The notes under the pieces: generated by a model | Seen by the model: the letters and a program-made list of their open reading frames with translations, nothing else | Told to the model about the DNA's origin: nothing | The model's database searches: none | Shown here: piece after piece, positions 9,250 through 63,300 of the stretch | How the letters are laid out: each line of letters starts with the position of its first letter | Position numbering within the stretch: position 1 is the first letter of the stretch | From: an uncultured Ruminococcus sp. | GTDB taxonomy: Bacteria > Bacillota > Clostridia > Oscillospirales > Ruminococcaceae | Direction: 5' to 3' | Length of the DNA stretch: 64,000 bases | Assembly: GCA_910577575.1 (NCBI GenBank) | Contig: CAJTOG010000005.1 | Span: 9,188-73,187, forward strand | Made by a program: the position numbers and the translations under genes

Positions 9250-9255
9250 ACTTCA

Positions 9256-9495: not shown

Positions 9496-9507
9496 AATTA
9501 ACGTTGT

Positions 9508-9583: not shown

Positions 9584-9611
9584 TTTTTTATTTTTTCAAA
9601 AAATCAAAAAC

Positions 9612-11066: not shown

Positions 11067-11091
11067 AAAATCGCTACCTTTCGTCAAGTGG

Positions 11092-12216: not shown

Positions 12217-12231
12217 ATTTGTGATACCTCC

Positions 12232-13458
12232 TCAGATATTTTCCCCGATAATCTGTTTAGGCTCAACAGACTTACCGCCTGATACTGTTACATTATGACC
12301 GACAACCGCAATGCCCCAGTCATCTCTGTTTTCAACCTGTTCAGGACTCTTTCCTATATGCACACCGCCCTCAATAACACAGTCGCTTCCTACAATTGAA
12401 TATTCAACAACTGCACCTGATTTTATAACAGTACCCGGCATAACAATACTGTAATCCACTGTTGCGCCTTCCTCAACCGTAACACCGTCAAACAGAATTG
12501 AAAAATCAACAGAACCATCAACAGAACTTCCCTCTGCAATCATGGAATTTTCAACCCGTGCATTGCTGCCTATATACTGTGGCGGCATATAATTGCTTCT
12601 TGAATAGATTTTCCAGCTTGGGTCATATAAATCAAGTGGAACACTCGGACTGAGCAAATCCATATTAGCTTCCCAGAGAGAATCAAGAGTACCGACATCC
12701 TTCCAGTATCCTTCAAATTCGTAAGCAAAAAGTCTCTGCTTATCACGAAGCATAGAAGTAATAATATCTTTTCCGAAATCCTTAGACCATTTTTCTCCTC
12801 TATCACGCTTTGCATTTGCATCATTTTCATTTTCGATAAGATACTTTTCAAGTTTTTTCCAACTGAATACATAAATACCCATTGATGCAAGCGTTGACTT
12901 CGGTTCTTTCGGTTTTTCAACAAAATCAATAACTTTATTCTGCTCGTCGCAAATCATTATACCGAAACGTGAAGCCTCAGCAAGCGGAACATCAATAACC
13001 GAAATTGTACAGTCTGCATCATTTGCAATGTGGAAATCGACCATTTTTGAATAGTCCATTTTATAGATATGGTCACCGCCGAGAACAACTACATATTCAG
13101 GGTCATAACGTCTGATGAAATTCATATTTTGATAGATGGCATTTGCAGTACCCTCGTACCATGAAGCTCCTGCCTGTGATTCATAAGGCGGAAGGACGTG
13201 AACACCGCCGTTCATTTTATCCAAATCCCACGGCTGACCGTTTCCTATATATTCATTAAGAACAAGCGGCTGATACTGTGTAAGCACACCAACTGTATCA
13301 ATTCCGGAATTGGTACAGTTTGAAAGCGGAAAATCAATAAGACGATACTTACCGCCATAAGGAACAGCAGGTTTTGCTACATTTTTAGTAAGAGCATAGA
13401 GTCTGCTTCCCTGACCGCCGGCAAGCAGCATTGCTACAACGTTTTTCTTAGTGTACAT
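12232..13458 (-). CDS. glgC: Glucose-1-phosphate adenylyltransferase
   Basis: [37 protein letters not shown] and the FVEKP motif. Confidence 0.9.
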
Positions 13459-13492
13459 AAATATTCCTCCTGATATTTAGTTAAATCTAATT

Positions 13493-15481
13493 TTATTCTT
13501 CAACAGAGTTTTTCTTTTTTCTTATTGTAGTTCTGGTTTTTTTTACTGAATTTTCAGCAGCATCTTCTAATTTTTCATTCTTTTTCTTAGAAACATTTAT
13601 TTTGAGATACATAACAGAAAGCGGAGCAATAGTCATTGAAATACTATTTTCAAATCCATGCATCGGTTCTTTTTCTGACTTATAAGACTTTGCGGAAGCT
13701 CCTTTCCCTCCAAATTCCGGTGCATCAGTATTGAATACAACTTTGTATGTTCCTTTTTTGGGAATTCCGATACGGTAATTTTCACGCTGTACGGGAACAA
13801 AATTGCATACAGCAATAATTTCATCGCCGTTATCGTCAATACGTCTGAAAGCTATAACACTCTGCTTGTTATCATCATTTGAAATCCAGCTGAAACCACT
13901 CCACGAATCATCGTTCTGCCATAACGGTGAATTTTCAGAATAGAATTTATTAAGCTTTTCAGAAAATTTAAGCATAGTTACGTGTTCTTCAATTTCAAGC
14001 AATCCCCAGTCAAGCTGAGTCTGATAATTCCATTCATTCTTCTGTGCAAATTCCTGTCCCATAAAAAGAAGCTTTTTCCCCGGATGAGCCATCATATAAG
14101 CAAGAAAAGCACGGTATGAAGAAAATTTATCACCTTCCAAACCAGGCATCTTGTTAATCATGGAACATTTTCCGTAAACTACTTCATCATGAGAAATAGG
14201 CAGGATATAGTTCTCTGAAAAAGCATAAAAGAAAGAGAAAGTCAGCTTGTCATGATTGAATGAACGATAAATAGGGTCAAGGGACATATAACTGAGCATA
14301 TCGTTCATCCAACCCATATTCCACTTGAAATTAAAGCCCAGACCTCCGATATTGGTAGGTTTGGTAACCAAAGGCCATGCAGTTGATTCCTCTGCAATCA
14401 TGAGTGCATAAGGATGTTTTGAAAATATAGCTTCATTGAGTCTTTTAAGAAATTCAACAGCTTCAAGATTTTCATTTCCTCCGTTGATGTTTGCAACCCA
14501 TTCGCCGTCACGCCTGTCATAATCAAGATAAAGCATAGAAGCCACAGCATCAACCCTGAGACCGTCAACGTGCATTTCAGTAAACCAATAATTTGCACTT
14601 GAAATAAGGAAAGAACATACTTCAGCTTTACCATAGTCAAAAACATGAGTACCCCATGCTTTATGTTCCTTCTTGCGATTATCTGTATATTCATAACAGC
14701 AAGTACCGTCAAATTCATACAAACCGGAAGCATCCTTTGGAAAATGAGCAGGAACCCAGTCAAGAATAACGCCTATTCCTGCTTCGTGGAGCATATCAAC
14801 CATACGCCGGAAATCGTCCGGAGTTCCATAACGTGAAGTCGGTGCGAAATATCCCGTCACCTGATAACCCCATGAACCGTCATACGGAAACTCTGTAAGC
14901 GGCATGAATTCAATATGTGTATATGACATCTTTTTAAGATAAGGAATTATTTCTCTTGCAAAATTTATGTAAGAAATAAAAACATTTTCTTCACCGCTAT
15001 TTTTCCATGAATTGAGGTGAACTTCGTAAACATTTACAGGACTTTTATAAATTGTCCTGTTTTTCTTTGATTCAAACCACTCAGCATCATTCCACTCATA
15101 ACTGCTTTCATAAATTTTTGAAGCAGTACCGGGACGTGTTTCAAAATGCGGAGCATACGGGTCTGATTTGTTAAAAATTCTTCCATCCTTTGACTCGATA
15201 CTGTATTTATAGATATCGAACTGTTCAAGCTTTGAAATTTCTGTTTCCCATATACCATCTGAAATCAGTTTCATAGGATTCTTTTCACGTTTCCACTCGT
15301 TGAAATCTCCTACAACCGAAACGCTTACGGCATTAGGAGCCCATACTCTGAAAGTAAAAACCTTACTTCTTCCTTTTTTTCTTGAATGTACACCAAAGAA
15401 TTTCCATGCTTCATAATTTTTACCCTGATAGAAAAGGTAAAGCGGAAAATCATTGGGATTATTATTTTTATCGACTGACAT
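13493..15481 (-). CDS. glgB: 1,4-alpha-glucan branching enzyme (GH13)
   Basis: GH13 motifs DWVPAHF, GLRVDAVASM, MIAEEST and ISHDEV, plus the N-terminal CBM48-like FRVWAPNA. Confidence 0.9.
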   Translation of the reverse strand: MSVDKNNNPNDFPLYLFYQGKNYEAWKFFGVHSRKKGRSKVFTFRVWAPNAVSVSVVGDFNEWKREKNPMKLISDGIWETEISKLEQFDIYKYSIESKDGRIFNKSDPYAPHFETRPGTASKIYESSYEWNDAEWFESKKNRTIYKSPVNVYEVHLNSWKNSGEENVFISYINFAREIIPYLKKMSYTHIEFMPLTEFPYDGSWGYQVTGYFAPTSRYGTPDDFRRMVDMLHEAGIGVILDWVPAHFPKDASGLYEFDGTCCYEYTDNRKKEHKAWGTHVFDYGKAEVCSFLISSANYWFTEMHVDGLRVDAVASMLYLDYDRRDGEWVANINGGNENLEAVEFLKRLNEAIFSKHPYALMIAEESTAWPLVTKPTNIGGLGFNFKWNMGWMNDMLSYMSLDPIYRSFNHDKLTFSFFYAFSENYILPISHDEVVYGKCSMINKMPGLEGDKFSSYRAFLAYMMAHPGKKLLFMGQEFAQKNEWNYQTQLDWGLLEIEEHVTMLKFSEKLNKFYSENSPLWQNDDSWSGFSWISNDDNKQSVIAFRRIDDNGDEIIAVCNFVPVQRENYRIGIPKKGTYKVVFNTDAPEFGGKGASAKSYKSEKEPMHGFENSISMTIAPLSVMYLKINVSKKKNEKLEDAAENSVKKTRTTIRKKKNSVEE

Positions 15482-15505
15482 AATACAGCCCCCTTTGCTA
15501 TATAT

Positions 15506-15534
15506 ATTGTAGCAGAAATTGGAAAATTATTCAA
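15506..15534 (-). promoter_or_regulatory. Candidate promoter of the glg operon (TTGAAT-17 nt-TACAAT with TGn extension)
   Basis: The minus strand reads TTGAATaattttccaatttcTGcTACAAT, about 25 nt upstream of the glgB ATG. Confidence 0.4.
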
Positions 15535-15712
15535 GTATTTCTGCAAATATGTACAAAATTTCAGACAAAGCTATAAATATTACCGACTTTTTTTATGCAA
15601 CTTGCCAAAGGCCTTTATCGGAGTATAAATAAATCATTATCTATTTGTACTTACAAACAATGTTTTTAAGTTAAATTCAGTAATCATTTTTACAATTGTT
15701 CATATGTTGTTT

Positions 15713-17911
15713 TTATTTTTCAGATGGATTTATTTTTATACCGATTACAGTAATATCATCTGAATGAAGTGTGGGATTGAAACTGTCTGCTTTTGAAGCA
15801 ATTTCACGGACAATTTCATTTACACTGTCCATCTGCAAAATACATTCTTTTGCGAAAAGATATTCATTTTCACTTATTCCGTCCGAAAACATTATAATTA
15901 TATCGCCTTCATCAAGTTCATATTCAGATACTGATATTTCAGCCTGTTTTGTAATTCCTATCGGGAAAGTCGGAGATGATATTTTTATAATTTCATCACC
16001 TTTTTTAATAATAGTTGCGGCAGCTCCGGATTTTATTGAAGTCATACAGCAGTTATCCAGATTGATTTTTATTGCATCAAGAGTTGCGAACGATTCTTCA
16101 CGGGATTTCGTCACCATGACTGAATTAATCAGCCTTACAGCTGATTCACATTCCATTCCTCCGCATATAAGCCGCCTGAACATTCCTATAACCATATGCG
16201 AATCAACAGCCGCACTTTTTCCGCTGCCCATTCCGTCCGATATAACAATATATCCTGTTCCTGTACCATCATAGAAAACTGAAAATGTATCTCCGCTAAT
16301 ATCAGATGACGAAGCACAAAGGGAAGCTGAATAAACCTCAATTTCATAGGGCGGATTCTCATAAAGGCTTATTCTCATTTCCTTTACTGAACTTACAGGC
16401 AAAGCAGCCGAAAGTTTCATTTCAAGTTCGTCTGAAACAAGGTCGAGGATTCTTGTTCTGCTTTCAGGAATTTCACTCAAGGCAAAATAAATTTCAGCAA
16501 TAAGACGATTTGCAGAATTATAGTAAGCTGTAACATTTTCAGGTGTCATACCATGAGATTCAAGTTTTCCCGCAATCTGTCTGCTCATTGCCCTTGAATA
16601 CCGTATATCCGGCTTTTCACCTGAAAAACGTACTATTTCACCCATAATTTTAAGCTGTTCATTCATAAGCTCACGCTCCTCTGAAAATCTCAGGCTCATA
16701 AGCTGTTCGGCAGTACGGCTTCTCAGATTTTTTTCAAGCTCATCTGCAATATCTTTCTTTTTTACACAGCTTTCAGGCAGAATGGGTATCATTTCACCGG
16801 CGATTTCAGTTTCAAACTGACTACATATACTGCGTCTGTAGCATCTGCTGCAAATCTTTTTTTTAGGTGATGAAGTTTTCTTTGTATTCTTTTTCGTTAC
16901 CGCCAGAGCAGCAGAAATTTTTGCTGAATCAAGTCTTACGGCTTCTATTGCATCAGAAAGAAAATTCATTCTTATATTGCTTATATCAGGAGACTCAGCC
17001 TGTTTTTCTCCGCCGACAGATACCCATTTATCAGAATAATAAGGTGCGGCAATTACAAAAATTGCTGCTCCGCACACAGTACTTAAAGTAAGCTCTGCAC
17101 TTCCGGAAGCTCCTGTTAAAACAGTAAGCATAAAACAGGCAAGAGAAAAGAACACTGCCGTCAAAAAAATTTTTCTGTATCTGAAAAAACCTGTAAGCAA
17201 TCCGGCAGCAGGAAGCATTGCCGCAATAATTCCGATTTCAGGAGATACAAGAAAAGCTCCGCACGCTGAAAGTGCACCGCATATTATTCCGCCGGCACTA
17301 TGATAGTAAAATGCTGCCATGAGAGTAATTCCCGAACCGATAACTATTCCGGGATTAATAATATCCAATTCCATTGAACAAAGCGAGGCCATATATACAA
17401 TATATACTATTGAATATGCACATCCCGAAAAACCACTTAAATTAATTACTTTCTGATTCCCTAAACTTAGTATGAGTTCAGCGGCTGAATATGAAGTAAA
17501 CCCGGCTATCATACCATATAAGGCATAAAACATCAGCTTCTGCGGAAATTCATTTATTAATAAAGATACAGCTGCTCCCGCAATTATTACAGCTACTGAT
17601 GTTATTATTCCGCATATTTTTGGATTATTGCTTTTCTCAAAAAACATTTTTGCTATAACAATAACTGACATGGCAGCAAGTTTTATAATACTCCGCCCTA
17701 TTGAATCAGTCAAAACACACCTCACTATTCCTCCGGCAAAAACTGCCGCTGAAAACGGAAGACTAAGTGAACCTGCAAGTGATATATCAACAAAAGATGC
17801 TACTCCTGCAATACTTGAACCCGAAAAAATAAATCCTCCTAAAAATGAAAATAGAAAACCTGTACTTATTTTTAATGCATTATTTTGTTTTAATTTTTCT
17901 GCTTTAATCAT
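15713..17911 (-). CDS. spoIIE: Stage II sporulation protein E (membrane PP2C phosphatase)
   Basis: About 300 aa of multi-TM N-terminus, a central regulatory region, and a C-terminal PP2C domain (GDTFSVF...ISDGMGSG...MFSDG). Confidence 0.8.
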   Translation of the reverse strand: MIKAEKLKQNNALKISTGFLFSFLGGFIFSGSSIAGVASFVDISLAGSLSLPFSAAVFAGGIVRCVLTDSIGRSIIKLAAMSVIVIAKMFFEKSNNPKICGIITSVAVIIAGAAVSLLINEFPQKLMFYALYGMIAGFTSYSAAELILSLGNQKVINLSGFSGCAYSIVYIVYMASLCSMELDIINPGIVIGSGITLMAAFYYHSAGGIICGALSACGAFLVSPEIGIIAAMLPAAGLLTGFFRYRKIFLTAVFFSLACFMLTVLTGASGSAELTLSTVCGAAIFVIAAPYYSDKWVSVGGEKQAESPDISNIRMNFLSDAIEAVRLDSAKISAALAVTKKNTKKTSSPKKKICSRCYRRSICSQFETEIAGEMIPILPESCVKKKDIADELEKNLRSRTAEQLMSLRFSEERELMNEQLKIMGEIVRFSGEKPDIRYSRAMSRQIAGKLESHGMTPENVTAYYNSANRLIAEIYFALSEIPESRTRILDLVSDELEMKLSAALPVSSVKEMRISLYENPPYEIEVYSASLCASSSDISGDTFSVFYDGTGTGYIVISDGMGSGKSAAVDSHMVIGMFRRLICGGMECESAVRLINSVMVTKSREESFATLDAIKINLDNCCMTSIKSGAAATIIKKGDEIIKISSPTFPIGITKQAEISVSEYELDEGDIIIMFSDGISENEYLFAKECILQMDSVNEIVREIASKADSFNPTLHSDDITVIGIKINPSEK

Positions 17912-40381: not shown

Positions 40382-40987
40382 TTAATCAAACGCAACAGAC
40401 ACGTCATATTCAGGTTGAGGAATCGGCTCTGTACTTGTTGTTGTATTTACATATGAATACTGCGGTTCGGCTGTTGTTGTCTTGGGTTCGGGAAGCGGGT
40501 TGTCAAAATTGTCAATTTTTCCGAGCAGGTAATTTTCAAGCATTACCAAATCCGCCATGCCGATTTTATCGTCACGATTTATATCAGCCCTCATTGAGTC
40601 AATCCCTTCACTTAATTTACCATTTATATACCCCTTTCTTAATTCAATCATATCAAATACATCAACTTTCCCGTCTACATTGACATCACCATACCATGCA
40701 ACAGGTGAACCATAAACAGGCATAGGGATAGTTGTATTAACTGTTGTTGGTATGGGTTCTGTTGTTTCTGGAGCAGTTGTTGTCCATGAAATTGACGGAC
40801 CATAAACAGGCACTTCCATTCCTTCATTAGGATTATAAATTGTTGTCGTTACCACCGGTTCATCAAGAGAAAGATTATAATCAGACGCCGATGCAGAATC
40901 TTTAATATTATCGGTTCCTGACGGAATCATGTTTAGAGCAGCCGCAAAAAGTGTAGCAGTCAAGACGGTTTTTTCAGTTTTCTTCAT
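40382..40987 (-). CDS. Secreted Pro/Thr-rich protein with a central dockerin module
   Basis: Signal peptide. Repeated (V/M)PVYG(P/S) segments. Dockerin GDVNVDGKVDVFDM...DINRDDKIGMADL. No cysteine anywhere in the sequence. Confidence 0.7.
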   Translation of the reverse strand: MKKTEKTVLTATLFAAALNMIPSGTDNIKDSASASDYNLSLDEPVVTTTIYNPNEGMEVPVYGPSISWTTTAPETTEPIPTTVNTTIPMPVYGSPVAWYGDVNVDGKVDVFDMIELRKGYINGKLSEGIDSMRADINRDDKIGMADLVMLENYLLGKIDNFDNPLPEPKTTTAEPQYSYVNTTTSTEPIPQPEYDVSVAFD

Positions 40988-50185: not shown

Positions 50186-51451
50186 TCATCTTAAATTTTC
50201 CTCTATAGAATAATCGCCGTATGTCAGGTCACTGCAATTATAATAATCCCATCTGTATTTCTCATCATCAATCGGAAACAATTCACCCGATTCATAGGCA
50301 AGATAATTATCCCAGACTGTCTCAGAACAATCCCATGAATTAAGGAAAACCATTTTCTTGCCCAATGCATTAACAGAAGTATCCATATAAGCCTTATTTC
50401 CATAAATATAGGCGTTCTGTCCCCAACCGTCAACTATTTTGTTCATAGAAAAAGCATAGTTTATTTCTGAACAGCCATTCCGATAGCCTGTACAGTAACG
50501 CAGAATGCAGTCATTACCCTGAATATCAACAAAACTGTCGGCATAATTTTCACCAGACATTCCGATACCGTCAAAAATACAATTTTCAACAATTGTACCC
50601 GTAGTGTATTCCTTGATGTCAATATGTTCTGCTGCAACATTTGGTCCGATGGAGCATCCCCTGATTGTATTATAGTCACATTTATAACCATAACCGCTTG
50701 TACTTTTTGAACTGCCGATATAAATTCCCTCACCGTAAGCAGGTGAAACAAGTCCGGTATCATGTATAAAGCAATTCTCAGCAAGACAGTATGAACTGTT
50801 GTCACGGAAATGGATTCCCTCAGAACCAATATTATATACTTCACAGTTTATCAGCTTTGTATGATTTGAATTATCAAGAATTATGCCTTTTGAAGCATTT
50901 GTAATTTTCAAATCACGTATAACCCACCAGTCGCCTGTAACAGAAAGAGCATAGTTCTCACTAACATTGATGCCCGAAATAACTGCCGGATTTTCCGGAT
51001 TCTCAGAGCGTAAAACTATCGGTTCGGATTCAGTACCGTCTGCCTCACCCTTGAACATATAGCCCTTTGAAGTTGAACCGCTGTAAATATAATCACCGGA
51101 TGCAAGAATAATTTCATCATTCGGTTCAACATCTGCAAGAGCAGCCTTAAGTTCATCCGTATTTGTAACACGGACTATATTTGTCGGTTTTTGCGAATCT
51201 ATAAATTCTTTCCGCATCTGACATAAATCAAATACATCAATTATGCCGTCAGCACACAAATCCGAATTGTCTGAATTAATTAATATATCATCATAATCCA
51301 ATATCCACTTCTGAAGGTAAACTAAATCAGCAGAAGTAAATTTTCCGTCATTATTTGCATCGCCCCTTACAAACGAATCAGCAAAAGCAGAATTTCCGTT
51401 CAATAAAGAAATACAAGAAACTGATAATAATAATACAATAAATTTTTTCAT
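50186..51451 (-). CDS. Secreted N-terminal-dockerin protein with a right-handed parallel beta-helix (pectate-lyase-fold) domain
   Basis: Signal peptide, dockerin GDANNDGKFTSADL...DLCADGIIDVFDL, and beta-helix repeats (NCEVYNIGSEGIHF, NCFIHDTG, GEGIYIGSS, RGCSIGPN, ENCIFDG). The start codon shares 1 nt with the upstream sortase stop (TGATG). Confidence 0.75.
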   Translation of the reverse strand: MKKFIVLLLSVSCISLLNGNSAFADSFVRGDANNDGKFTSADLVYLQKWILDYDDILINSDNSDLCADGIIDVFDLCQMRKEFIDSQKPTNIVRVTNTDELKAALADVEPNDEIILASGDYIYSGSTSKGYMFKGEADGTESEPIVLRSENPENPAVISGINVSENYALSVTGDWWVIRDLKITNASKGIILDNSNHTKLINCEVYNIGSEGIHFRDNSSYCLAENCFIHDTGLVSPAYGEGIYIGSSKSTSGYGYKCDYNTIRGCSIGPNVAAEHIDIKEYTTGTIVENCIFDGIGMSGENYADSFVDIQGNDCILRYCTGYRNGCSEINYAFSMNKIVDGWGQNAYIYGNKAYMDTSVNALGKKMVFLNSWDCSETVWDNYLAYESGELFPIDDEKYRWDYYNCSDLTYGDYSIEENLR

Positions 51452-52104
51452 CAGTTTTCCTCTTTCTTTTCAACCGCTCTTACGGTAACCCTGCTCTGTC
51501 CGCCGATAGTGCAGGTAAACAATGTTAAGTCCCATTCATCAGCAGAACCAAAATCCATTGCCTCAATATCTTTACCATTGATTTCAGTAACCTGTAAAAC
51601 CTCATAATAGTGTGGATATCCGTTTGCATCAGTAAAAATAATTTCCTCACCGCCTGCCAAATCTCTTAATCTTCCGAAATGAGAATAATAATTATGAGCA
51701 GCTATTATAATATCTTTATCGGCAATAGTACCTTTATACCGGCAAGGTGAAATATTAAGACGGGGATAGCTCCATTCACTCATAACCGGAAGTTCTATCT
51801 CCAGTGACGGAACAGAAATAATCCCAATATATGAATAATCTCCTACATAAGTCGTCGCTTCTTCTATAACAGGTGTAGTCGTAGTATCATATTTTGCATA
51901 TTCAGCAAAAAGGTCTTCTTCAATTGTAGTTATAGTAGTAGCCTGAGTTGTTTCAGGCATTCCGATTTTCAGTTCATTTAAAATACTGTTTGCGGCTTCA
52001 CCGCCTTTTTTATTTTCATTCATATTGTACAAAACAAGGGACAACGCTGCAATAAGCAGAGCTGCCCCAAGTAATATACAACACAATCCATGTGTCTTTT
52101 TCAT
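51451..52104 (-). CDS. Sortase (short, N-terminally anchored, not class C)
   Basis: N-terminal TM helix, His in AAHNYYSHF, the TLFTCT active-site Cys and a downstream Arg (SRVTVRA). Confidence 0.8.
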   Translation of the reverse strand: MKKTHGLCCILLGAALLIAALSLVLYNMNENKKGGEAANSILNELKIGMPETTQATTITTIEEDLFAEYAKYDTTTTPVIEEATTYVGDYSYIGIISVPSLEIELPVMSEWSYPRLNISPCRYKGTIADKDIIIAAHNYYSHFGRLRDLAGGEEIIFTDANGYPHYYEVLQVTEINGKDIEAMDFGSADEWDLTLFTCTIGGQSRVTVRAVEKKEEN

Positions 52105-52106: not shown

Positions 52107-53399
52107 TCAGTCTTCTCTCCTGCTATTAAAAAGTAAACGTAAACCAATAGCAACAAATATCATACCGCCGAAAAGCATTACAGGAACCGGCCACCAAAGC
52201 TGACCTGTCTGAGGAAGCTTTTCAATTGCTTTAGTAGTAGTTTTAGCAGTTGACTTTGAAGTGCGGTTTGAATTTCCACCACCACTGGAATTATTTGACT
52301 CATTTATTGTAGTTGTCTTGGTACCTGAAATTGTAATATCGGAAGTACTGCTTGTTGATGTATCATTATCAGTTGAAGAAGCGGTTAAATCACCGCTTAC
52401 AGTAGTTACTGTGGCTGACTGTCCAGTGAAAGTTGTTGAATCTTCCGGCTTGACATCCTTTGAACCTGTTGTAGTAGTTCGTGTATCTTCACCGCCATCT
52501 ATCGGACCTGTGCGGGTTGTAGTAACAGCTGTTCTACTTGTACTTTTAGTATCCATCGGAACTGTATGAGTTGTAGTAACAGTTGTAGTTGTTGTCGTTT
52601 GACGCAGCAATTCATTGTCATAGTTATTCATGATAATATACTGTGTTGTATTGTTTCTGTACATTACAAAACAACCGGCAGGAACAGTTACTTCCTTAAC
52701 TCTCCATTCACTGGAAACATCACCCTCCCATGAATAAGTCCAGTTATTTTCCTGACTTAACTTAACAGTATCATAAACAACATTGTTCTCATAAATCTCA
52801 ACAGCAATTTCCACTGGTTTATCAGTTACACCATCAGCATTAGCCCATATTTTTCTTACGGCATATCGTTCAATGTCTCCCGGCAGTGTTCTTTTAATAC
52901 GAAACTTAGGATAACCATCAATTTCTTTTTTACTTCCGTCAACTTCAAAAATAATCGGAACCGGAACAAAAGTATAATCTTCTCTCTTTACGCTTTTTCC
53001 ACATGCAAGATATAAACCGACTTCAAGATTTTCAAAACGAATCACACCATTATTATCTGTTATACCCTTTCTTTCAGGTGAAAGAGAATCAAGCATTGCA
53101 AAATTTTCAAGAGTTGAAGCAGTTTCAGTTATACTTTCTTCAGTAAGACCACCAAGAATCACAGGATAATTTGCAAAATCACCGCTAAGAGTATATTTAT
53201 TACCACTTTTTTTGCCAATCTTATAAATTGACCACTGCATACCTGAAAGAATAAAATCATCTTCCTTGCAATAAAGAATCAGGCTCTCACTCTTCTCTGC
53301 GGCTGAAACATTAACCGTAAGACCTGCGGCTAACATAAGAACCATACCTAATGCACACAATACAGCACCTAATCTTTTGTACATTTTTCGCATTGTCAA
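52107..53399 (-). CDS. LPXTG-anchored minor (probable base) pilin with a CnaB-type domain and a long Thr/Ser-rich stalk
   Basis: Signal peptide and a CnaB-like IRFENLEVGLYLACGK. About 140 aa of T/S-rich tail. Sorting signal LPQTGQLWWPVPV, then a TM helix, then SRRED. Confidence 0.75.
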   Translation of the reverse strand: MTMRKMYKRLGAVLCALGMVLMLAAGLTVNVSAAEKSESLILYCKEDDFILSGMQWSIYKIGKKSGNKYTLSGDFANYPVILGGLTEESITETASTLENFAMLDSLSPERKGITDNNGVIRFENLEVGLYLACGKSVKREDYTFVPVPIIFEVDGSKKEIDGYPKFRIKRTLPGDIERYAVRKIWANADGVTDKPVEIAVEIYENNVVYDTVKLSQENNWTYSWEGDVSSEWRVKEVTVPAGCFVMYRNNTTQYIIMNNYDNELLRQTTTTTTVTTTHTVPMDTKSTSRTAVTTTRTGPIDGGEDTRTTTTGSKDVKPEDSTTFTGQSATVTTVSGDLTASSTDNDTSTSSTSDITISGTKTTTINESNNSSGGGNSNRTSKSTAKTTTKAIEKLPQTGQLWWPVPVMLFGGMIFVAIGLRLLFNSRRED

Positions 53400-53411: not shown

Positions 53412-54269
53412 TTAATTCAATAATTTCATATAATCTTTTTTCCTTTTATGTAACTTTCTGTTACCGCTGAAAATCCAGAAGCAAATCAGAATCAAAACCA
53501 GCGGAGCAGCAATAAACGGTATAACAAGCATAGGGTCAACTTTCAGAGCATCAGGTTCAACTTTAACAGTATGTTCATAAATTGTTTCTATACGATGCGA
53601 ACGTATAAGCAGACGATGAGAGTTGATTCCGTATGGTGTACAGGTCATAAGAGTAACATAATCACCGTCAGGAATAACTGAAAGCTTATCTATTTCACTT
53701 GGCTCAACAATAAGAATTTCCTCAACTTCGTATGTAAAAACTTCATTAAGAACAGTAATGGTAAAAGTATCGCCAGTAACAAGTTCATCCAAATCAGTAA
53801 ATAATTTTGCTGATGGCAGACCCCTGTGAGCTGAAATAACCGCATGGGTATTCTTTCCGCCTATCGGTAATGATGAACCCTCCAGATGACCGGTAGCAAT
53901 ATTTAGAACTTCCGCACTTGTTCCGTGATAAATCGGAAGCTCAACACTTATGACAGGTATTGCAATATAGCCTATGATTCCCGAATCGCCGACATTAAGA
54001 ATTTCATCATAATCTGTAAGCTTATCATATTCAGTAAATGGTGAAACAAGTTGATTCAGTCTGTTGTTGTAATCGTAAGCTGCCTCCCAGATTTCATTAT
54101 ATCTGTCGGGGTCAAGCTGCTGAACAAATTCATTATAATTTGCAACCATACGGCTCTGAACCCTTTTGTTCCACCAGTCACTGACTGTAGGATAAAGCAT
54201 TACGGAGAGTCCCACCAGCAAAATAATAACTAATATAATTGTTGAAATAATACCAGATTTTTTCCTCAT
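53412..54269 (-). CDS. Class C (pilus-polymerising) sortase
   Basis: N-terminal TM helix, a lid-region SPF (variant of DPF/W), LPIYHGTS, TLMTCTPYGINSHRLL, and the extra C-terminal TM helix typical of class C. Confidence 0.85.
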   Translation of the reverse strand: MRKKSGIISTIILVIILLVGLSVMLYPTVSDWWNKRVQSRMVANYNEFVQQLDPDRYNEIWEAAYDYNNRLNQLVSPFTEYDKLTDYDEILNVGDSGIIGYIAIPVISVELPIYHGTSAEVLNIATGHLEGSSLPIGGKNTHAVISAHRGLPSAKLFTDLDELVTGDTFTITVLNEVFTYEVEEILIVEPSEIDKLSVIPDGDYVTLMTCTPYGINSHRLLIRSHRIETIYEHTVKVEPDALKVDPMLVIPFIAAPLVLILICFWIFSGNRKLHKRKKDYMKLLN

Positions 54270-54356: not shown

Positions 54357-56126
54357 TTAAAGTTCTTCTTTCTTCATACGCTTCTTTGTAATAAGGAATA
54401 TGCCTGCAACTGCAACCATTGCACCACCGCCAAGATAGAACAATTTTGTACCAATGCCACCGGTTGATGGAAGTGAAGTACCCTTGTTATTTGTAATCTC
54501 AAAATCAGCATTGCTATTGGTTTCATCAAATTTAAGTGAAACATTATTGCTTTCACCTTCTGCATTTGCTCCTGAAATCTTCTCAAGATGTGAAGTAACT
54601 TCAATCTTAATTTCTGCACGCTCTGTAAGCTCATTATAGCCTGTAGGAGCATTTACTTCATCGAGATAATAAGTGCCGGCATCAAGACCCTTAATTAAAA
54701 TTACACCATCATCAGCTGTTTTAATTGTTTCAGCTACTTTGTCTTCAGAATCTTTAACCGGATAATAAGCACCATCTGCACCCTTATAAAGCTCTATCTT
54801 ATTACCATCAGTTGCGGCATCATAAAGCTCAAATTCAGCTCCGGCAAGTGTAGCTTTTGTATCTCCGTCAATTTTAGTACCATTAGCTTTATATGTGTAT
54901 ACACCTACAGTGTCTTCCGGTGTTTCACCTGTTTCTTCATCGCCTTCTTCTTCCTCATCTGGTCCCTTAGGTTTTTCATCCTTTGAATCAGGAGCTTTTT
55001 CTCCTCTTCCTTCCCAGTTAGGATTGTTGGAGTAAGTCAACTTAACCGTATTTATATTAGCCTTTGAAGTAACACCATAAACCAATTCATCTTCATCTGC
55101 TTCTGCAATCATTGCATCTTCACTAAGATGAGCATTATAGATAACTTCAATAACTGAACCGTCTGTTAAATCAGCATCATATTCTTTAATATCGGCAATT
55201 GTAAGATTCCATGAACCATCTGTAAGACCTGCTACAGCTTCTGTATAGTAACCATTTTTAGCAGTTGTTTCATTGTATACAGGAACTTCTATATCACCAA
55301 CCTTAACGCTTGCAATGCTGTCAAATATAACACCTTTAGCAAGAGTATCAATAAAACTTACCTTGTATGTATCGTAAGCAGCATATTCAGCATCAGCATC
55401 TAAAGTAGCAACAAGCTTAAACTGGAATGTTTCATTGATGTTATGGTCGGCTGTTTCACCCCAATGTTCTGTGTTCTGACCGTCTGTGTTATCCCAAACC
55501 TGTTTATCAACCTTTGGAGCTGCGTGTTTAGCAGTAATTTCTACATCTGTACCTGCAAGCTTAACCATATAACGTGATTTAGCACCTGAGTTTGAACCGT
55601 TTCCATTGTTTTCAGGAGCAGCTGCATCAACAACAAGATAATAACCTGCATCAAGATTTTCAAGTGTACCAGCTTTGGTATCATCTAAATTAGAAGCTAC
55701 AATATCAAGAAATGCATTCATTTCTTCAGATTTATCAGTGAAAACATTAACTTCTGTCTCTTCAACAGTTTTCTTTGCAGTACCTAAAATCTTTGCAACA
55801 TCAGCAGCATCTTCAACATTTTCATCAAAATATTTTCCAATTACACTATCTGCCTTCAATGCTGATAAAATAGAATCTCCTTTTACACCTATACCCCATT
55901 CAACATTACTGAAAGTTTCAGTTAAAGCACTTGTATCACCGTCGGTTTCAGTTGTATAAGTACCTTTGAAAATCTGATAGGACTTATAAGAATGTTTTGC
56001 TCCATCAGTATCATTAACAGTAATATTAAGAGCAGATGAACTGAAATTCATAGCCATAGGAGCGGTCATTGTTGCAGCCATAAGGGTTGCCGCTATTGCA
56101 GCAGTTACTTTCTTAAAGTTTTTCAT
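54357..56126 (-). CDS. LPXTG-anchored backbone (major) pilin, isopeptide-domain fimbrial protein
   Basis: Signal peptide (start at 56126, AAGGAGAA Shine-Dalgarno sequence). E-box YYLDEVNAPTGY. An acidic Pro/Glu linker. Sorting signal LPSTGGIGT, then a TM helix, then KKRMKKEE. Confidence 0.8.
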   Translation of the reverse strand: MKNFKKVTAAIAATLMAATMTAPMAMNFSSSALNITVNDTDGAKHSYKSYQIFKGTYTTETDGDTSALTETFSNVEWGIGVKGDSILSALKADSVIGKYFDENVEDAADVAKILGTAKKTVEETEVNVFTDKSEEMNAFLDIVASNLDDTKAGTLENLDAGYYLVVDAAAPENNGNGSNSGAKSRYMVKLAGTDVEITAKHAAPKVDKQVWDNTDGQNTEHWGETADHNINETFQFKLVATLDADAEYAAYDTYKVSFIDTLAKGVIFDSIASVKVGDIEVPVYNETTAKNGYYTEAVAGLTDGSWNLTIADIKEYDADLTDGSVIEVIYNAHLSEDAMIAEADEDELVYGVTSKANINTVKLTYSNNPNWEGRGEKAPDSKDEKPKGPDEEEEGDEETGETPEDTVGVYTYKANGTKIDGDTKATLAGAEFELYDAATDGNKIELYKGADGAYYPVKDSEDKVAETIKTADDGVILIKGLDAGTYYLDEVNAPTGYNELTERAEIKIEVTSHLEKISGANAEGESNNVSLKFDETNSNADFEITNNKGTSLPSTGGIGTKLFYLGGGAMVAVAGIFLITKKRMKKEEL

Positions 56127-56197
56127 AAAAATTCTCCTTTTCTTGTACATAAAGCACATAAAATTTAATTGTTTATCAATTCGGAAAAATCCGGATT

Positions 56198-56785
56198 CTA
56201 AACTTTACTGATGACCTTAAAAGGCCATATGCGTAAAATAACCTTGCCGATGATATATTCATCAGCAACGCATCCAACAGAAGTTGAACGGCTATCAATT
56301 GAAACAGAACGATGGTCACCCATAACAAAAATTCTGTTTTCCGGAACCTGATACGGCAATTTTATATCACATTCGCCAAAAGCCTTTTCATTCACATACG
56401 GTTCATCAAGCTCGTTGCCATTGAGATAAACTGTACCATCATCTGCAATATCAATAACATCACCAGCTGTTCCTATAACTCTTTTCAAAAGAATTTTATT
56501 ATTGAAATAAAATGCTACAATATCACCGCTTTCGAAATTACTGCGTTTGCTGCATATAAGAAGTTCATCATTAAGAAGCGTCGGAGTCATACTTGTTCCT
56601 GTAACTCTTAAAACCGGTAAGAACAGCATTGAGACCAGAACTGCAATTGATGCAACAACAAGAAGTGAAGAAACTGTTGTATAAAGAGTTTTAACATAAT
56701 TCCTTCTGTAGTTAATCCGCCTCACTTCAGAATTAAGCTGTTCAGCTGTAGGAATGTCTTTTGTAAATTCTTCCATACTGCTCAT
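56198..56785 (-). CDS. Signal peptidase I (S26) encoded inside the pilus locus
   Basis: N-terminal TM helix, catalytic-Ser box GTSMTPTL, Lys box LLKRVIGTAGD and GDHRSVSIDSR. Confidence 0.85.
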   Translation of the reverse strand: MSSMEEFTKDIPTAEQLNSEVRRINYRRNYVKTLYTTVSSLLVVASIAVLVSMLFLPVLRVTGTSMTPTLLNDELLICSKRSNFESGDIVAFYFNNKILLKRVIGTAGDVIDIADDGTVYLNGNELDEPYVNEKAFGECDIKLPYQVPENRIFVMGDHRSVSIDSRSTSVGCVADEYIIGKVILRIWPFKVISKV

Positions 56786-57063
56786 TGCCCCGTTTCTTCT
56801 GAAGCACTATAACTGCTTACAGGATTCTGCTGATTCTTTTTGCCGAAATAGTTTTCAGCAGAATTTTTAACTGCATCTGAAATTATTTTAATTAATTCAT
56901 CGGAAAGATTATTCTTGGCTTCAATAGCGACTTTCGATAAATCATCAATACGAACTTTCAGACTTTCATTTTCTTCTTTTAGCTTATCAAGTTCTTCCCT
57001 TAGATAAAACATGAGTTCGAGCAATTCTGAGCGTTTAAGCTTCCGAAGTTCCTTGTCTGCCAT
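56782..57063 (-). CDS. Small coiled-coil protein (93 aa), translationally coupled to the signal peptidase gene
   Basis: ATGA overlap with the downstream gene. GGAAAGGAG Shine-Dalgarno sequence. Heptad-rich LRKLKRSELLELMFYLREELDKLKEENESLKVRIDDL. Confidence 0.55.
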   Translation of the reverse strand: MADKELRKLKRSELLELMFYLREELDKLKEENESLKVRIDDLSKVAIEAKNNLSDELIKIISDAVKNSAENYFGKKNQQNPVSSYSASEETGQ

Positions 57064-57314: not shown

Positions 57315-60300
57315 TTATGCAGTTTTTCTGCGTCTGCGTCTGTAGTAAATAATACCCAAAAGACTTCCGCTGATTATAAGAATACCTGTAACATGATAAG
57401 GTTTTGTACCTGTTCCGCCTGTTGACGGCATTTCTACACCTTCCGGAGTTTCTCTGTAATTATAAATTTCAGCCATGCTGTCACCGGGCTTTGAAGCATT
57501 GATAGCATAAACAGTCTCATTGTCGCCGTCACTGAATGCATACAAAGGAGTGTAACCGTTCGGCGAATCAATCTCTGCTATCCAGTAATAATAAGGATTG
57601 CCATTTTCATCATAAACATCAAGACCATCAAATGTCAACGTTCTGTTGAAATCGCCTTTACCGCCGTCAAATGTAACAGTTTTGCCGTTAACTCTATAAG
57701 CTTCAAACGGGTCAGCCTGTTCTGCATATGTTGATGCAGAATAAAATCTTGCGGAACGCTTCATATAGTTTGCAGGAACTATTTCGTCATACTGGAATTT
57801 ACAGCTTTCAACTGTCCAACAATCATTGTTTGAATATACTTCAATACAATCTATTGATGTAGCATTTATAAAATCAATTGTAACTTCCATACCATTACAA
57901 GTTACGTTGCAAATACCAGAGTTATTATTATAACTTAAACCTAAAACAGCACCATCATTAGAATATATACCTGTTTCATTTTGTTTGAATTTAATAATAT
58001 ACATAGACCAACTGTTACTTGTTGAACTCATTTGCATGGTTATCTTTTGCACTTTTTTAGCCGAATCTGCTTTTATCTCATATGATTTACCGGCTTCCAT
58101 CTTAATTGAACCTTTTACTACATTAATTGAAATTTCTTTTGAAACACCATCATCACGAGTTACTTTAATCCTTGTTGTTCCTTCTGAAATGCCCTTAACA
58201 GTAATAGTACCGTCATTATTATTAATAACATCTGCTATATTAGAATCTAAAGATTCACAAGAAAACTCACCATAATACGGATTAATAGTAAATCTGATTT
58301 CCTTATCAACAGCAACTTCACTGCTATCACCGGTGACATCAAAATTGTTAGGAAGAACAACATTTATATTAAGAGGAACTGTTAAACCGTTTGCTTTGAC
58401 ATTGATTGTATAGTTACCCAAAACGGTCGCTGTAAGTTTATTACCGTCAATAGTTATATTTTTGTTGCTGCAATTAAATTCTGCATTGTCAACGTCAACG
58501 CCGCTATCTGTAACTTTAAGCGTATATTCTGTACCTGCTGTAACATTATAACAGCCATTAACAAACTCTGCACCATCAACAGAAGCCGTCAGAGAAGAAA
58601 CAGTTATATTAATTGTTTCAGTAGTTTTTCCGTCTGTTATCGCAACAGAAGTTTCTCCGTCACTGATACCATTAATTTTAATTATGTTACCGTTCACTTC
58701 AACTGATGCAATACCTTCATCAAGACTCGACTTATCAATTGAAATACCTGATTTATTTGCAGTTATTTCAGTAATATTATCAACAGTCACAAGAACGTTT
58801 TCCGGAAGTGAAAGTTTCAATTCCAGTTTATCTGCTATATCAGACGGCATTTCAGTACTGCGGTAGAGCTGGACTGTAATACTGTCCTTAAGATGAGCAT
58901 CATTTCCATCGCTCCATGTTTTATTGACGCTTATTGAAAACTGTCTTGTATTTGTAATTTCAACTGTTCCTGCATTTGTTCCGTCAGTCTTGGATTCAAA
59001 ATCTGCCGGTTCTATCGGAGTTTTGGAATAACCGTCAATTTCAATTTCATCAATAGTATAGTAATAAAGATTTCCGTTTGCATCACGGGCAGGTAAATCA
59101 GTATATTCCCATGTATCTTTTGTGCCTGATACATCTGTTGGGTTATCTGTAAGAACAGTTTCCCACTCGGAATATGTTCCGTCAGCATTCTTAATACGTC
59201 TTTGCAGATAGAAGTTGTTTGGTAAAAGTGCGTGCTTATCTGCATCAGCTATCGCATCGTCGCCAACCCATGTTTTATGGACACGTATTGAAGTTTTTTC
59301 TGTGTTACGCCTATTTACAACAGTTACAGGAGTATCACTTGCTGCCTGCTGTGCATTGTCTTCATAAGATACTTTCCATACATTAGCAACAGCATCTGTT
59401 TCTTCAACTCCATAGATATACTTTCCATTACTGTCTCCTACAGGAACATCTATAGCCTTTGTCCACGAACCATCTGAATTAATAGTAAACTTTGCTATAT
59501 CAGGGTCTTTATCGTCAGTTGTAAAAGAGCCGTCTGTTTTAAGGTATTCTATGTAGTAAGATTTTATAGATTTACCATAAGCTTCAGCTATTTTATCCCA
59601 ACCGGCTGCATTTGGATGACAACCATCATCCTGAAGATATTTATCTGTGATAATTTCATTAATGTCAACTAAATAAATATTCGGGTCAGCATCAGCAATT
59701 TCTCTTACCGCTTCATTTGCATAAGAGATAATATTTTTACATTCTGTTTCCCAATCCTTCAATACTGTGGCATCATTACTATAAGGATAATTCCACCACC
59801 ATTTTCCGCCTTCTGTAGCTTCTGTGCTGTTTTTAAGCCATTTGAAATCTGGAATTGTGCCAAGGAAAATAATCGGATTCTTACCGCTATTCTCTTTAAG
59901 ATTATCAATCAGAGTAGCATAGCTTTCTTTTATTGCTCTTTTAACTGTATCCTTATCAGCACTTTTTATACCGCTGCCCTGATGAACATCATTAGTTCCA
60001 CCAAGCAGACAAATAACATCTGCTCCTTGTACATTAGTATTGAATGCACTGATTTGTGCACTGTTCTGACCGAGATTTGTAATCGAATTACCTTTAAGTT
60101 TGAATCCGGCTGATGTCAATGCCTTTGCTAAATCCAGAGGATAAGCATCGTTTGTGGTCTGATAACCATAAGTGATAGAATCACCTACAGCCATAACACT
60201 CACTTCATTTTCCGGAATAATGTTTTTATAAACTCTGACTTTGACTTCGTTTGGAATTTCATTGTCTGGAAGCGGAGTTACACCGTCTTCATCAACCCAC

Positions 60301-63300
60301 TGTTTCTGAACAACAATAGCATTACGTGTATTTTTAATAGTATAGTCATACATTGTATTGCTGGCTGAACTGCTGTCCAAATATGATGCTGTATACTTGC
60401 TTTCTGCTCCTGATTCTGAAAGGTTTATACTTTTTTCAAAAACATAGTAATAGTAAGAATCACCGTTCTCAACAGGATTGCCTTCTTCATCAAGTTCGCT
60501 CATCGGAAGTCCGGTCCATGAATAAGTCCAATCGGTTACTTCGTCATCATTGTGTTTAAGGATAACTGTTTCAATCGGTTCTATACCGGATATAGCATTC
60601 TGAATAGTAGCATTATTAAGATTGTCAAGTTTCTTGTTCAGGCGATAAAGTGCAACTTCAACTGAATCATTAACATGAACTGCTGAACCGTCACTCCACT
60701 GCTTTCTGACAGATACAGTTACATCTGTTGCATTGATGTTCTTGTTTGTAACAGTAATTTCACCTGTGAGCTGATTAATATTGAAAACACAACTTACAAC
60801 ATAATCATCTCCAAGCTCAGGAGTCTCAACAGCTTCAAACGATACGTACTTACTCAGGTCTGCTTCAGCAATAAGGTCTGTAATATCTGAACGCCAGTTG
60901 TTTCCGCTTGTAAGTTTTACATTTTCAGCAACGGGATTTTCACTTCTTACGCCATTACGGTCAACACCATATATGCTTATAGTAATTTCACTGACAGGTG
61001 CTGACATGGTTTTGCCTTTTGAATTCTTCCATTCTTTTATAAGATATAGTTTCTGTGAGTTTTTAATTGTAACAATACCGTCATCATTTACAGCATTGCC
61101 AACATAAATCGGAAGATATCCACCTTCTTCAGAATCTGACAGGAATTTTCCTGATTTTTCATCAAGAATATAAGTTATTCCGTTGACTGTATAAGCTGTT
61201 TCTTTCACATAGTAATAAATAGGTTTACTGTTCTTGCCGTTCGGCAGATTATTCCAGATGTTACCGTTAAGCTCACTTATTTTTATATTTTTTACGGACG
61301 TAAATGAGCTGTCCATAATTCCCAAATCATCAGCATTTGCAGGAATTGCATTATCAGGCATACCTGAAGCAGTCTTTTTATAAGACCAGTAAAGTTCTAC
61401 AGTAACAGAATCATTATCATGATTAGCATTGTCGTCGCCGTACCATTCCTTAGAAATACCTATATCAATAAGCTTACTGTTCGGAATTTCGATATCATCG
61501 CCTGACCTTATCTGAATTATATTTGATTCTGAAACATTATTTGGAATCTGAACAGATGAAATATTGCTGTTGTATGCAAAATAATGTGTTGAAACGTAGT
61601 TTGTCAGGAATTTTGTATAATCTGTTCCATCAAGGATTGTAGTACCGTTATTAAGATAATCAATAATAAGCTGACGGAATTTTTCACCATTTTCATCATT
61701 CGGTATTAAGTTTGAACCTTCGTAGCCTTTCGGAACTGAAACCTCAATAAGCTTATAAAGAATATCCTGCTCAATCGCAACTTCCTTTGCGGGATTTACA
61801 TTAATATCGCCCGCATTTTCATCAATCTTACTTCCCTGCATACCTGTTTCAGACCATGTAATTGCTCCACCATTCTGGGCGTCAACCGATTTTGCAAAAT
61901 ACCATAAACCATTTTCATACTTAGCCATAAGGAAAGTAGCATCAAGACTGTTTATGCTGTAGTTGCCTACATTGACTTTTTTGATTTTAGGTCTGCTGTT
62001 TGTTGAAACTGTACCACTTGAACGTGAGATTCTGTATTTATCATCTCTTTTTGTATCTTCAGCAGTTGCACTGTCTGAAATCAGCTTTGCTCTGTTATGG
62101 AATGCAATTTCGTGACCTGTAGGCGGAACATATCCGGGTTTCATTGTATCAAGCTTGCCGTTTACTACAACTGAACTCTTACATCCATTCAAAACAGACG
62201 GTGTATTTTCATTTGCTATAATTTTATACGTATACTGTATTTCAATATGCATTTCATCAGGGATTGAAAGTTCAAGAAGTGCCGCACCATCATTTGTTGA
62301 TTTTCCACTTGCAAACTTCATTGTGTATTCATTCTGCTTAAGCTCTGTCTTTACGCCATTTTCATCAACTTTATATAGTTTAAGACGTGTCATGAGAATA
62401 TCAACAAGTTTTGAACCCTCTGTTATTTTATTATGACACGTATCCGTATAGCTGTCTGTATCGAAAATATCCCTTATATCAATTGTATTTCCGTTTGAAA
62501 GATTCTTGCCTTCCGGATTCACATCAAGAGTATACTGTACATATCCGGGAATAAGTGACTTTTTATAGTCCTTTACCAGAAGATTTGACGGAGCTTTGAT
62601 TGTAATTGAAGCATAATCGTTCTCTTTTGTTTCAATTCCAGGTGTTTTATCAGATTCCTGATTTATTTTAAAAATTTTGTTGCTGAATGTAAAATTACCC
62701 TTTACAAGTTTTTCTTCTAATTTACTGCACTCAACTTTAACACTGTATGCAATATAAAATTTCTCCCAAGACTTGGGCTTATTAAAATAAACAGCATGAT
62801 TTTCCTTGTCATAGTAGAAATGTTCTCCGGATTCATAATTACTCCAAATTGCTTCTACACTGTCTTCAGCTATCAAATAGTTACCAAAAGTAGATTGATA
62901 CCATACCATAATTGGAGCTACAATATAACCGCCTTCATCTGAATGATTACTACTATTCATAATTGTTCTCAAGGAAGGAATAATTGAATCTTTATTCGAA
63001 GCAAAGCTTTCTTGTTGACAATTGCTATTATAAATTAATTCAAAATCTTCCGGAAGATAATCAACAACAGGATAAGTTAAACCATTTGTTCCTCCAGAAC
63101 CTTCAATTATATATGTGAAAACATAATAATCCTTTTTTTCACCGTTTTCATTCTCTAATTTCTTCTTATACTGACTTAAATCATCTCTCTGAATAGATTC
63201 TACTTCACTGCAACTTGAATTATAAGCAGTCTTTTTAATACCAATATCTTGTTTAAAAGTATTCTTTATTTTGTTTCCTTCATAACTGATTGAATATTTA

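Follow-up and report, generated by a model that had tools for sequence, protein, structure and literature searches.

In the window analyzed here, a stretch of 64,000 nucleotides from contig CAJTOG010000005.1 of an uncultured Ruminococcus sp., the minus strand encodes the C-terminal part of a giant sortase-anchored adhesin, in which an SGNH/GDSL hydrolase domain is looped out of a single CnaB-type stalk domain. Based on the motifs, profiles and predicted fold of this insert, its conservation among orthologues and the gene context of the adhesin, we suggest that it is a catalytically competent O-acetyl esterase, similar to enzymes of carbohydrate esterase family 3 (CE3), carried by an adhesin whose gene, in most species, heads a sortase-pilus operon. 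We assign this reading as a whole a probability of about 0.6.

The adhesin frame runs on the minus strand from a stop codon at 57,315 past position 63,998 without interruption over 2,227 codons (residue numbers below are those of this window translation). Within it, SGNH blocks I, II, III and V follow one another in the canonical S-G-N-H order (Table 1), not in the permuted H-S-G-N order of the AlgX/PatB1 type, and a match to all four motifs lies far outside chance. In Pfam searches, Lipase_GDSL_2 (PF13472) matched residues 1270–1466 with an E-value of 1.2e-14 (55.7 bits, cut-off 32.9) and Lipase_GDSL (PF00657) matched with an E-value of 8.4e-14 (52.7 bits, cut-off 23.6); both models also score above cut-off in each of 21 aligned family members (alignment A1, see below). 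The motif positions and Pfam scores thus agree with the original prediction, made from the letters of the window, that four SGNH blocks occupy one uninterrupted frame and that the catalytic Ser, Gly, Asn and His are intact, all of these residues being present in the window copy. A displaced nucleophile or His, which that prediction had named as a possible counter-indication, was not seen, as both residues are aligned in 21/21 members.

For structure prediction, alignment A1 was used as the input for an AlphaFold2 model of residues 1217–1567, which reached a mean predicted local distance difference test score (pLDDT) of 89.6 and a predicted template modeling score of 0.80; a single-sequence model (pLDDT 56) was set aside in its favor. 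The predicted structure supports a three-layer α/β/α SGNH fold. Moreover, when the model was compared with the PDB by Foldseek, the best 50 among the matches listed were all of the SGNH fold, with a probability of 1.00. Carrying every sequence-level feature that defines the SGNH/GDSL superfamily, the segment is, on these grounds, a true member of it. Specific to the family is an aromatic loop, IPHFDF...GGxWW (WWWNYPY in the window), which, speculatively, may contribute to a binding surface.

Pfam detected Cna_B in five stretches of the adhesin (E-value 6.8e-20). The original prediction was correct in placing CnaB-type sequence on both sides of the SGNH domain, but it located the domain between stalk repeats, while excision alignment and the AlphaFold2 model place it inside one of them. 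The segment preceding it (AIVVQKQW...EVKVRVYK) is a typical start, comprising strands A and B, of the adhesin's CnaB repeats, and the segment following it (...FTINSDGSWTKAIDVP...YIYGVEE...VTVVNRR) is the typical rest of such a repeat. Indeed, upon excision of residues 1265–1483, the remaining 123 residues aligned end to end with intact neighboring CnaB repeats, with the Lys of the K-x-W motif, the Glu of YxVxE and the Asn of the terminal TxxN all in register. In the AlphaFold2 model, two β strands are followed by an α/β core (model residues 52–265) and then by six β strands. Because the excised remainder aligns with intact repeats and the predicted strand order agrees, the SGNH domain sits in the B–C loop of one CnaB domain. 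We regard both the presence of an SGNH domain and its nesting as almost certain.

CnaB domains contain an intramolecular isopeptide bond between a Lys of the first strand and an Asn of the last strand. In the split domain, we read Lys1232 as the candidate isopeptide Lys, and Glu1533 and Asn1562 occupy the positions expected for the other two members of the triad. K1232 and N1562 flank the SGNH insert, one on each side. The conserved Lys/Glu/Asn set suggests a covalent clamp that bypasses the enzyme and probably takes load past it.

The window holds the last 2,227 of the 3,286 residues of the adhesin, because the gene extends beyond its edge. When 1.84 billion representative proteins were searched exhaustively with HMMER, a near-identical, full-length adhesin of 3,286 residues (P0001) was recovered; compared with the window translation, 4 of 2,227 positions are different, and its SGNH domain corresponds to residues 2306–2552. 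The true N terminus lies, by the length of P0001, 1,059 residues beyond the window edge. In addition, a metagenome contig (L055) bears the entire adhesin gene followed by the same operon as in the window. The distances given for the SGNH domain in the original prediction were approximately right, the GDS motif being located 1,271 residues from the window edge and 918 residues from MPSTGG, but the window edge is not the N terminus of the protein. At its C terminus, MPSTGG...ILIISGSLLGIIYY-RRRRRKTA (MPSTGG at residue 2190), the adhesin carries an LPxTG-type sorting signal, with the motif in the form common to the adhesin family, [LM]PxTGG. The SGNH domain is found in the C-terminal third of the adhesin, 715 residues before the sorting signal; therefore, if the adhesin is a tip subunit, the enzyme is closer to the shaft than to the distal end. 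Between CnaB repeats of the adhesin lies a 580-residue stretch (61473–63212, minus strand; residues 263–842) without a Pfam match, for which a word-indexed search returned just three fragmentary homologues; this stretch may be the adhesin's real binding region.

The same nested unit was found at the same relative position in about 28 representative clusters of giant proteins. Their members are mostly full-length (about 2,700–4,160 residues, with a few shorter fragments) and in most cases terminate with [LM]PxTGG; the identity of their SGNH domains to the window copy is 26–52%. When one genome per GTDB species was scanned, the complete nested unit was present in about 25 species, labeled Ruminococcus, Oscillospiraceae or related Clostridia and originating from human, mouse, rabbit, deer and rumen samples. 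A word-indexed homologue search with the SGNH segment gave no match, the family having been obtained from the exhaustive representative search, and NCBIfam provided no family-level assignment.

Alignment A1 comprises 21 family members that are 31–45% identical to the window copy. Invariant in A1 are K16 and W18 in strand A, G56-D57-S58-I59-T60 in block I, G118-T119-N120-D121 in block III, D242, G243 and H245 in block V, and N346 in the last strand (alignment numbering); E317 is retained in 20 and G94, the Gly of block II, in 19 of the 21 members. Mean pairwise identity is 41% in the SGNH part versus 35% in the halves of the host CnaB domain. The invariant and near-invariant columns indicate that the catalytic set and the Lys/Glu/Asn set are both strongly constrained, and it appears quite likely that the SGNH domain is catalytically active. 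Second GDSxT motifs in P0005, P0012, P0016 and P0027 were considered as additional SGNH domains and rejected, as three of them represent CnaB strand B and one a Gly/Asp-rich linker.

In some orthologues, a hidden Markov model (HMM) derived from canonically ordered members matches the SGNH domain non-collinearly, with three different breakpoints. In type A (P0019, P0023, L011 and L014), the N-terminal CnaB half is followed by block V and the C-terminal helix, then by blocks I–III through strand β5 and finally by the C-terminal CnaB half, so that the break falls between β5 and block V. Type B (P0011, P0018 and P0021) is organized like type A, with β5 traveling with block V and the break preceding β5. 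In type C (L024 and L025), everything after the GSIPHFDF strand is shifted to the front, the break following this strand. L015, assigned from its HMM pattern alone, has the pattern seen in L011 and L014. The SGNH domain occupies residues ~2440–2670 of the open reading frame (ORF) at 2819–11443 in L011 and residues 2645–2874 of the ORF at 2219–13084 in L024. Upon in silico re-ordering of P0011, P0018, P0019, P0021 and P0023, each copy aligned to the window domain in one continuous stretch from end to end, covering residues 1–218 or 2–218 of 219 at 30–37% identity (E-values 1e-31 to 1e-42).

In every permuted copy inspected, the motifs GDSxT, GTND and DGCHP occur once each. A tandem SGNH duplication in the five re-ordered proteins was considered and discarded, as motif counts and HMM domain order reveal a single permuted copy. 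Likewise, a partial duplication in L011, L014 and L015, which overlapping HMM ranges might have indicated, finds no support in the sequences of L011 and L014, both having one motif set in the type A arrangement.

Permuted SGNH-like folds with the order H-S-G-N have been described for AlgX, AlgJ and PatB1 (PMC9487903). The H-S-G-N order of some adhesin orthologues is the same as that of these proteins (AlgX/AlgJ, PatB1/DHHW family). However, AlgX, AlgJ and PatB1 are uniformly permuted acetyltransferases whose motifs are altered (GTSYS, DxH, Tyr replacing Asn), whereas the adhesin orthologues mix canonical and permuted orders, maintain the classical motifs and exhibit three breakpoints. None of the papers returned by a literature search described orthologues in which the canonical order exists side by side with several permuted ones. 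Nesting plausibly makes such re-ordering tolerable, because it keeps the two ends of the insert together. The canonical and the three permuted orders constitute a rare natural series bearing on how circular permutation arises and is tolerated.

In the window, the adhesin gene heads an operon that continues with genes for a signal peptidase, a major pilin, a sortase, a minor pilin and a second sortase (Table 1), in line with the giant adhesin in a pilus setting that had originally been proposed. The order adhesin, major pilin, sortase, minor pilin, second sortase recurs in at least 15 related loci. The signal peptidase gene is located upstream of the adhesin gene in those loci and downstream of it in the window; it lies ~7–8 kb upstream of the SGNH match in L002, L003, L005, L008–L010 and others. 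The adhesin's sorting motif shares its TGG with the LPSTGG of the backbone pilin, and the minor pilin has LPQTGQ. The shared TGG and the operon lend support to a putative pilus-tip role of the adhesin, and on balance we favor a pilus-borne adhesin. Between the adhesin and signal peptidase genes lies a 93-residue, coiled-coil-like ORF (56782–57063, minus strand), which overlaps the start of the peptidase gene by 4 nucleotides; it is also present in L055 and lacks a significant family match.

As an unbiased check, 80 metagenome loci (L056–L135) were picked solely by sortase similarity (50–64% identity). An SGNH domain was detected in none of these 80 loci, while the positive controls all matched (E-values 1e-40 to 1e-91); the domain is thus confined to a single subfamily of adhesins and not general in such pili. 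Upstream of the sortase, the sortase-selected loci contain adhesin-like ORFs whose lengths range from 0.8 to over 2.7 thousand residues, five of them with at least 2,669 residues. L057 and L060 show weak (23–27%) similarity to the CnaB and middle regions of the window adhesin.

Directly downstream of the pilus operon, a dockerin protein with a pectate-lyase-like, right-handed β-helix is encoded (50186–51451, minus strand), and a small, Thr/Pro-rich, dockerin-bearing protein is encoded at 40382–40987 (minus strand). The dockerin-bearing proteins point to a cellulosome-producing Ruminococcus. Together with the relatives, which are all Ruminococcus or Oscillospiraceae, they bear out the earlier assumption of a plant-fiber degrader.

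Table 1. Features of the adhesin gene and the pilus operon in the window, with the evidence for each
Feature	Coordinates	Strand	Evidence or remark
Giant adhesin gene, C-terminal 2,227 codons	57315–64000	minus	ORF open at window edge
Split CnaB, N-terminal half (aa 1226–1264), strands A and B, Lys1232 in VVQKQW	60207–60323	minus	Alignment, AlphaFold2
Nested SGNH/GDSL hydrolase domain (aa 1265–1483)	59550–60206	minus	Pfam; family alignment; AlphaFold2 model; Foldseek
Block I, GDSITYGY (aa 1272), nucleophile Ser1274	60162–60185	minus	Ser in 21/21 aligned members and 28/28 representatives inspected
Block II, NLGQNS (aa 1308), oxyanion-hole Gly	60060–60077	minus	Gly in 19/21
Block III, GGTNDV (aa 1333), oxyanion-hole Asn	59985–60002	minus	Asn in 21/21
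Block V, DGCHPN (aa 1458), catalytic Asp and His	59610–59627	minus	Asp and His in 21/21
Split CnaB, C-terminal half (aa 1484–1567), strands C to G, Glu1533 (20/21), Asn1562 (21/21)	59298–59549	minus	Alignment, AlphaFold2
Second split CnaB, N-terminal half (aa 1687–1726; VNKTW...TVQLYRS)	58821–58940	minus	Repeat alignment
Insert in second split CnaB (aa 1727–2107): immunoglobulin-like modules, then Cys-rich module	57678–58820	minus	Pfam, repeat alignment
Second split CnaB, C-terminal half (aa 2108–2186)	57441–57677	minus	Repeat alignment
Sorting signal: MPSTGG, hydrophobic span, RRRRRK tail, stop codon	57315–57431	minus	Motif/ORF reading; xPxTGG kept across family
S26 signal peptidase	56198–56785	minus	Domain search; SM-x-PT and KR-x-IG catalytic boxes kept
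Major (backbone) pilin: SpaA and GramPos_pilinBB domains, LPSTGG anchor	54357–56159	minus	Domain search
Sortase with N- and C-terminal hydrophobic segments, putative pilus-type class C enzyme	53412–54269	minus	55–69% identical in related loci
Minor (probably basal) pilin: Cna_B domain, LPQTG anchor	52107–53399	minus	Domain search
Second sortase	51451–52104	minus	Domain search
aa, amino acid positions in the window translation.

With regard to its enzymatic relationships, the family profile, when searched against the PDB, matched best to the CE3 enzyme CtCes3 of C. thermocellum (2VPT; E-value 6.8e-17). Next came 9KR0, a polyvinyl-alcohol (acetyl) esterase, then two acetyl-xylan esterases (7DDY and Axe2) and the CE3 structure 5B5S, with SGNH esterases outside CE3 scoring close to 2VPT. 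In the Foldseek comparison, the top PDB matches included 9KR0, the CE3 enzyme TcAE206 (5B5L/5B5S, ranked second and third), EstL5 and 2VPT; CE2 enzymes appeared at lower ranks, as did OatA and Ape1, a peptidoglycan esterase. The NCBIfam model for the acetyl-xylan esterase AxeA1 gave a weak, partial match (25 bits, cut-off 700). Judged by these comparisons, "CE3-like carbohydrate acetyl-esterase" is the best-supported label.

The adhesin domain shares the SGNH fold and the GDS, GxND and DGxH blocks with CtCes3-1 (2VPT) and T. cellulolyticus TcAE206 (5B5S), and CtCes3, like the adhesin domain, comes from a plant-cell-wall degrader. Unlike the CE3 enzymes, it features its own IPHFDF...GGxWW loop and a Cys residue in DGCHPN. 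Moreover, known CE3 enzymes occur free or attached through a cellulosome dockerin, whereas the adhesin domain resides inside a CnaB domain. Whether the substrate would be an acetylated carbohydrate is, in our estimate, evenly balanced.

Several observations weigh against a CE3-like esterase in a pilus-operon adhesin. Identity to characterized esterases is about 20–25%. SGNH domains may also be acyltransferases of the OatA, PatB and AlgX types (PMC9487903), and sequence alone cannot tell a hydrolase from a transferase. A few family members have Ala or Cys where block II otherwise has its Gly. Finally, in L017, a locus of an R. flavefaciens metagenome-assembled genome, no pilin or sortase gene was found within 7.5 kb downstream of the adhesin gene. 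L017 encodes a 3,586-residue orthologue (2765–13525, plus strand) that pilin and sortase genes do not adjoin; the adhesin's status as a tip pilin is therefore not universal, or not certain.

The arrangement in L017 would fit an adhesin that, instead of being pilus-borne, forms a free-standing, wall-anchored giant fibril beside the pilus operon, with the SGNH domain near the cell surface and possibly acting as an acyltransferase or esterase on the cell's own envelope polymers. The size of the adhesin is consistent with this alternative (known tip pilins are far smaller than its 3,286 residues), as are the second sortase in the operon and the occurrence of OatA-type transferases among the fold matches. 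However, the gene order shared by the related loci and the TGG that the adhesin has in common with the backbone pilin, unlike the minor pilin, argue for a place on the pilus, and the OatA matches rank well below those to esterases, such that we consider the wall-anchored fibril unlikely.

In the same L017 locus, a free, secreted SGNH protein of 628 residues that belongs to the same DGCHPN subfamily is encoded directly upstream of the adhesin gene (612–2498, plus strand), with Thr-rich linkers and two C-terminal modules of no known kind. A GH5 cellulase with DUF5620 is encoded directly downstream (13644–15767, minus strand). The free SGNH paralogue and the cellulase fit an enzymatic role in a plant-cell-wall setting. 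In L013 and L043, too, free SGNH ORFs of a similar kind lie close to the adhesin gene.

The top fold matches in BFVD were the tail spike of Pectobacterium phage PP99 and a Bacillus phage "tail fiber esterase". As in the SGNH esterases of phage tail spikes and tail fibers and in viral hemagglutinin-esterases, an esterase on an adhesive fiber would edit acetyl groups of the bound glycan. The fold is shared without a detectable close sequence relationship, and the phage and viral esterases are carried by trimeric viral fibers, whereas the adhesin is a sortase-linked, monomeric stalk. Phage fibers may thus serve as a precedent, by functional analogy, for receptor editing by an adhesive fiber.

These receptor-modifying esterases among the structural neighbors would also be in keeping with an active domain that targets a host or microbial glycan, e.g. 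O-acetylated sialic acids of mucin, as a receptor-destroying or receptor-editing enzyme comparable to the viral hemagglutinin-esterases. Gut samples of many different hosts (human, mouse, rabbit, deer and rumen) are represented in the family, and sialate O-acetylesterase 6NJC is among the PDB profile matches. However, 6NJC scores far lower than the CE3/acetyl-xylan-esterase type (E-value 2.5e-4; 23.5 versus 64.8 bits), and the neighborhood is one of plant-cell-wall degradation, with dockerin proteins in the window and the GH5 cellulase in L017; a host or microbial glycan as the target appears, if anything, slightly less probable than the wall-anchored fibril. A lectin-like, non-catalytic scaffold that merely binds glycans, with the aromatic loop (GGxWW; WWWNYPY in the window) as a conceivable binding platform, is highly improbable, as pseudo-enzymes usually lose catalytic residues, while here all 21 aligned members, just 31–45% identical to the window copy, have Ser, Asn, Asp and His without exception, and the catalytic residues are retained through three independent sequence re-orderings.

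For a CE3-like esterase on a pilus-borne adhesin, we infer a mechanism of three steps that involves tip location, isopeptide formation, force shielding, catalysis and an acetylated substrate. First, the pilus-associated sortase would link the (M/L)PxTGG motif of the adhesin to the pilin shaft, making the adhesin the distal fiber. Second, an isopeptide bond between Lys1232 and Asn1562, catalyzed by Glu1533, would form in the host CnaB domain; tension would then run directly from strand A to strand G, bypassing the 219-residue enzyme. Third, the enzyme, displayed sideways on the force-bearing stalk, would deacetylate the bound polymer, putative substrates being xylan, mannan or further acetylated glycans among the polysaccharides of plants or the gut. 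Deacetylation might uncover binding sites, or substrate for other enzymes, or might let go of the fiber (receptor modification).

The complete picture of an "enzymatic pilus", i.e. a deacetylating esterase that is part of a force-bearing adhesin, insulated by the clamp and recurrently circularly permuted (at least three times), is tentative, and we rate it somewhat below an even chance. If true, gut Ruminococcus would edit the polymer that they hold, as viral hemagglutinin-esterases and phage tail-spike esterases do. It would also represent a natural case of recurrent circular permutation in one orthologous domain with retention of the catalytic set.

Tip pilins bear vWA domains (PMC5536039). 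With RrgA of S. pneumoniae, GBS104/PilA and SpaC of L. rhamnosus, the adhesin has in common a sortase-pilus operon, a C-terminal sorting signal and a CnaB-type stalk. It further resembles RrgA-type tip pilins in that a globular functional domain is looped out of a stalk domain whose halves flank the insert, and the C-terminal half of the split CnaB domain matches PDB chains named "vWA domain protein" (7VCN, 7W6B). In RrgA, as Izoré and co-workers are said to have described in 2010, the vWA domain of the tip pilin is nested in an isopeptide-locked D2 domain, giving a nested D2/D3 layout. However, the insert of RrgA-type tip pilins is a vWA binding domain bearing MIDAS, the metal ion-dependent adhesion site, whereas that of the adhesin is an SGNH hydrolase domain. 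The adhesin is also 4–5 times larger, contains two split CnaB domains and comes from commensal fiber degraders, while RrgA-type tip pilins come from pathogens. By its sequence and gene neighborhood, the adhesin fits the hallmarks of a sortase-pilus adhesin.

In a literature search, no published account was found of a pilus adhesin with an SGNH domain or of such a domain in an adhesin of the MSCRAMM type (microbial surface components recognizing adhesive matrix molecules). The novelty lies in the joining of a nested-domain tip adhesin with an SGNH carbohydrate esterase, both kinds being known separately. Sortase pili are viewed as passive adhesive ropes, with binding domains (vWA, thioester or lectin-like) at their tips. 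An active esterase in such an adhesin, if true, would add chemistry to attachment, xylan, mannan or mucin being deacetylated at the point of contact, and would help account for the way in which cellulolytic Ruminococcus engage heavily acetylated plant fiber. From the nested, isopeptide-clamped layout, a general rule suggests itself for how fragile enzymes can be mounted on fibers under load, and this rule could serve protein engineering beside SpyTag-style CnaB chemistry.

The last CnaB domain of the adhesin is interrupted at the same topological position, the B–C loop, by an insert of 381 residues (Table 1). The original prediction had described Big_2-like immunoglobulin modules in this region; just one of the modules reaches the Big_2 cut-off, and does so marginally (23.0 versus 22.8 bits), and the modules are nested in the last CnaB domain. 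The Cys-rich module (57,675–58,115), which had been put forward as a candidate carbohydrate-binding module, matched no Pfam family. The split last CnaB domain with its insert showed the same layout in all three homologues examined at this position (P0005, P0012 and P0027).

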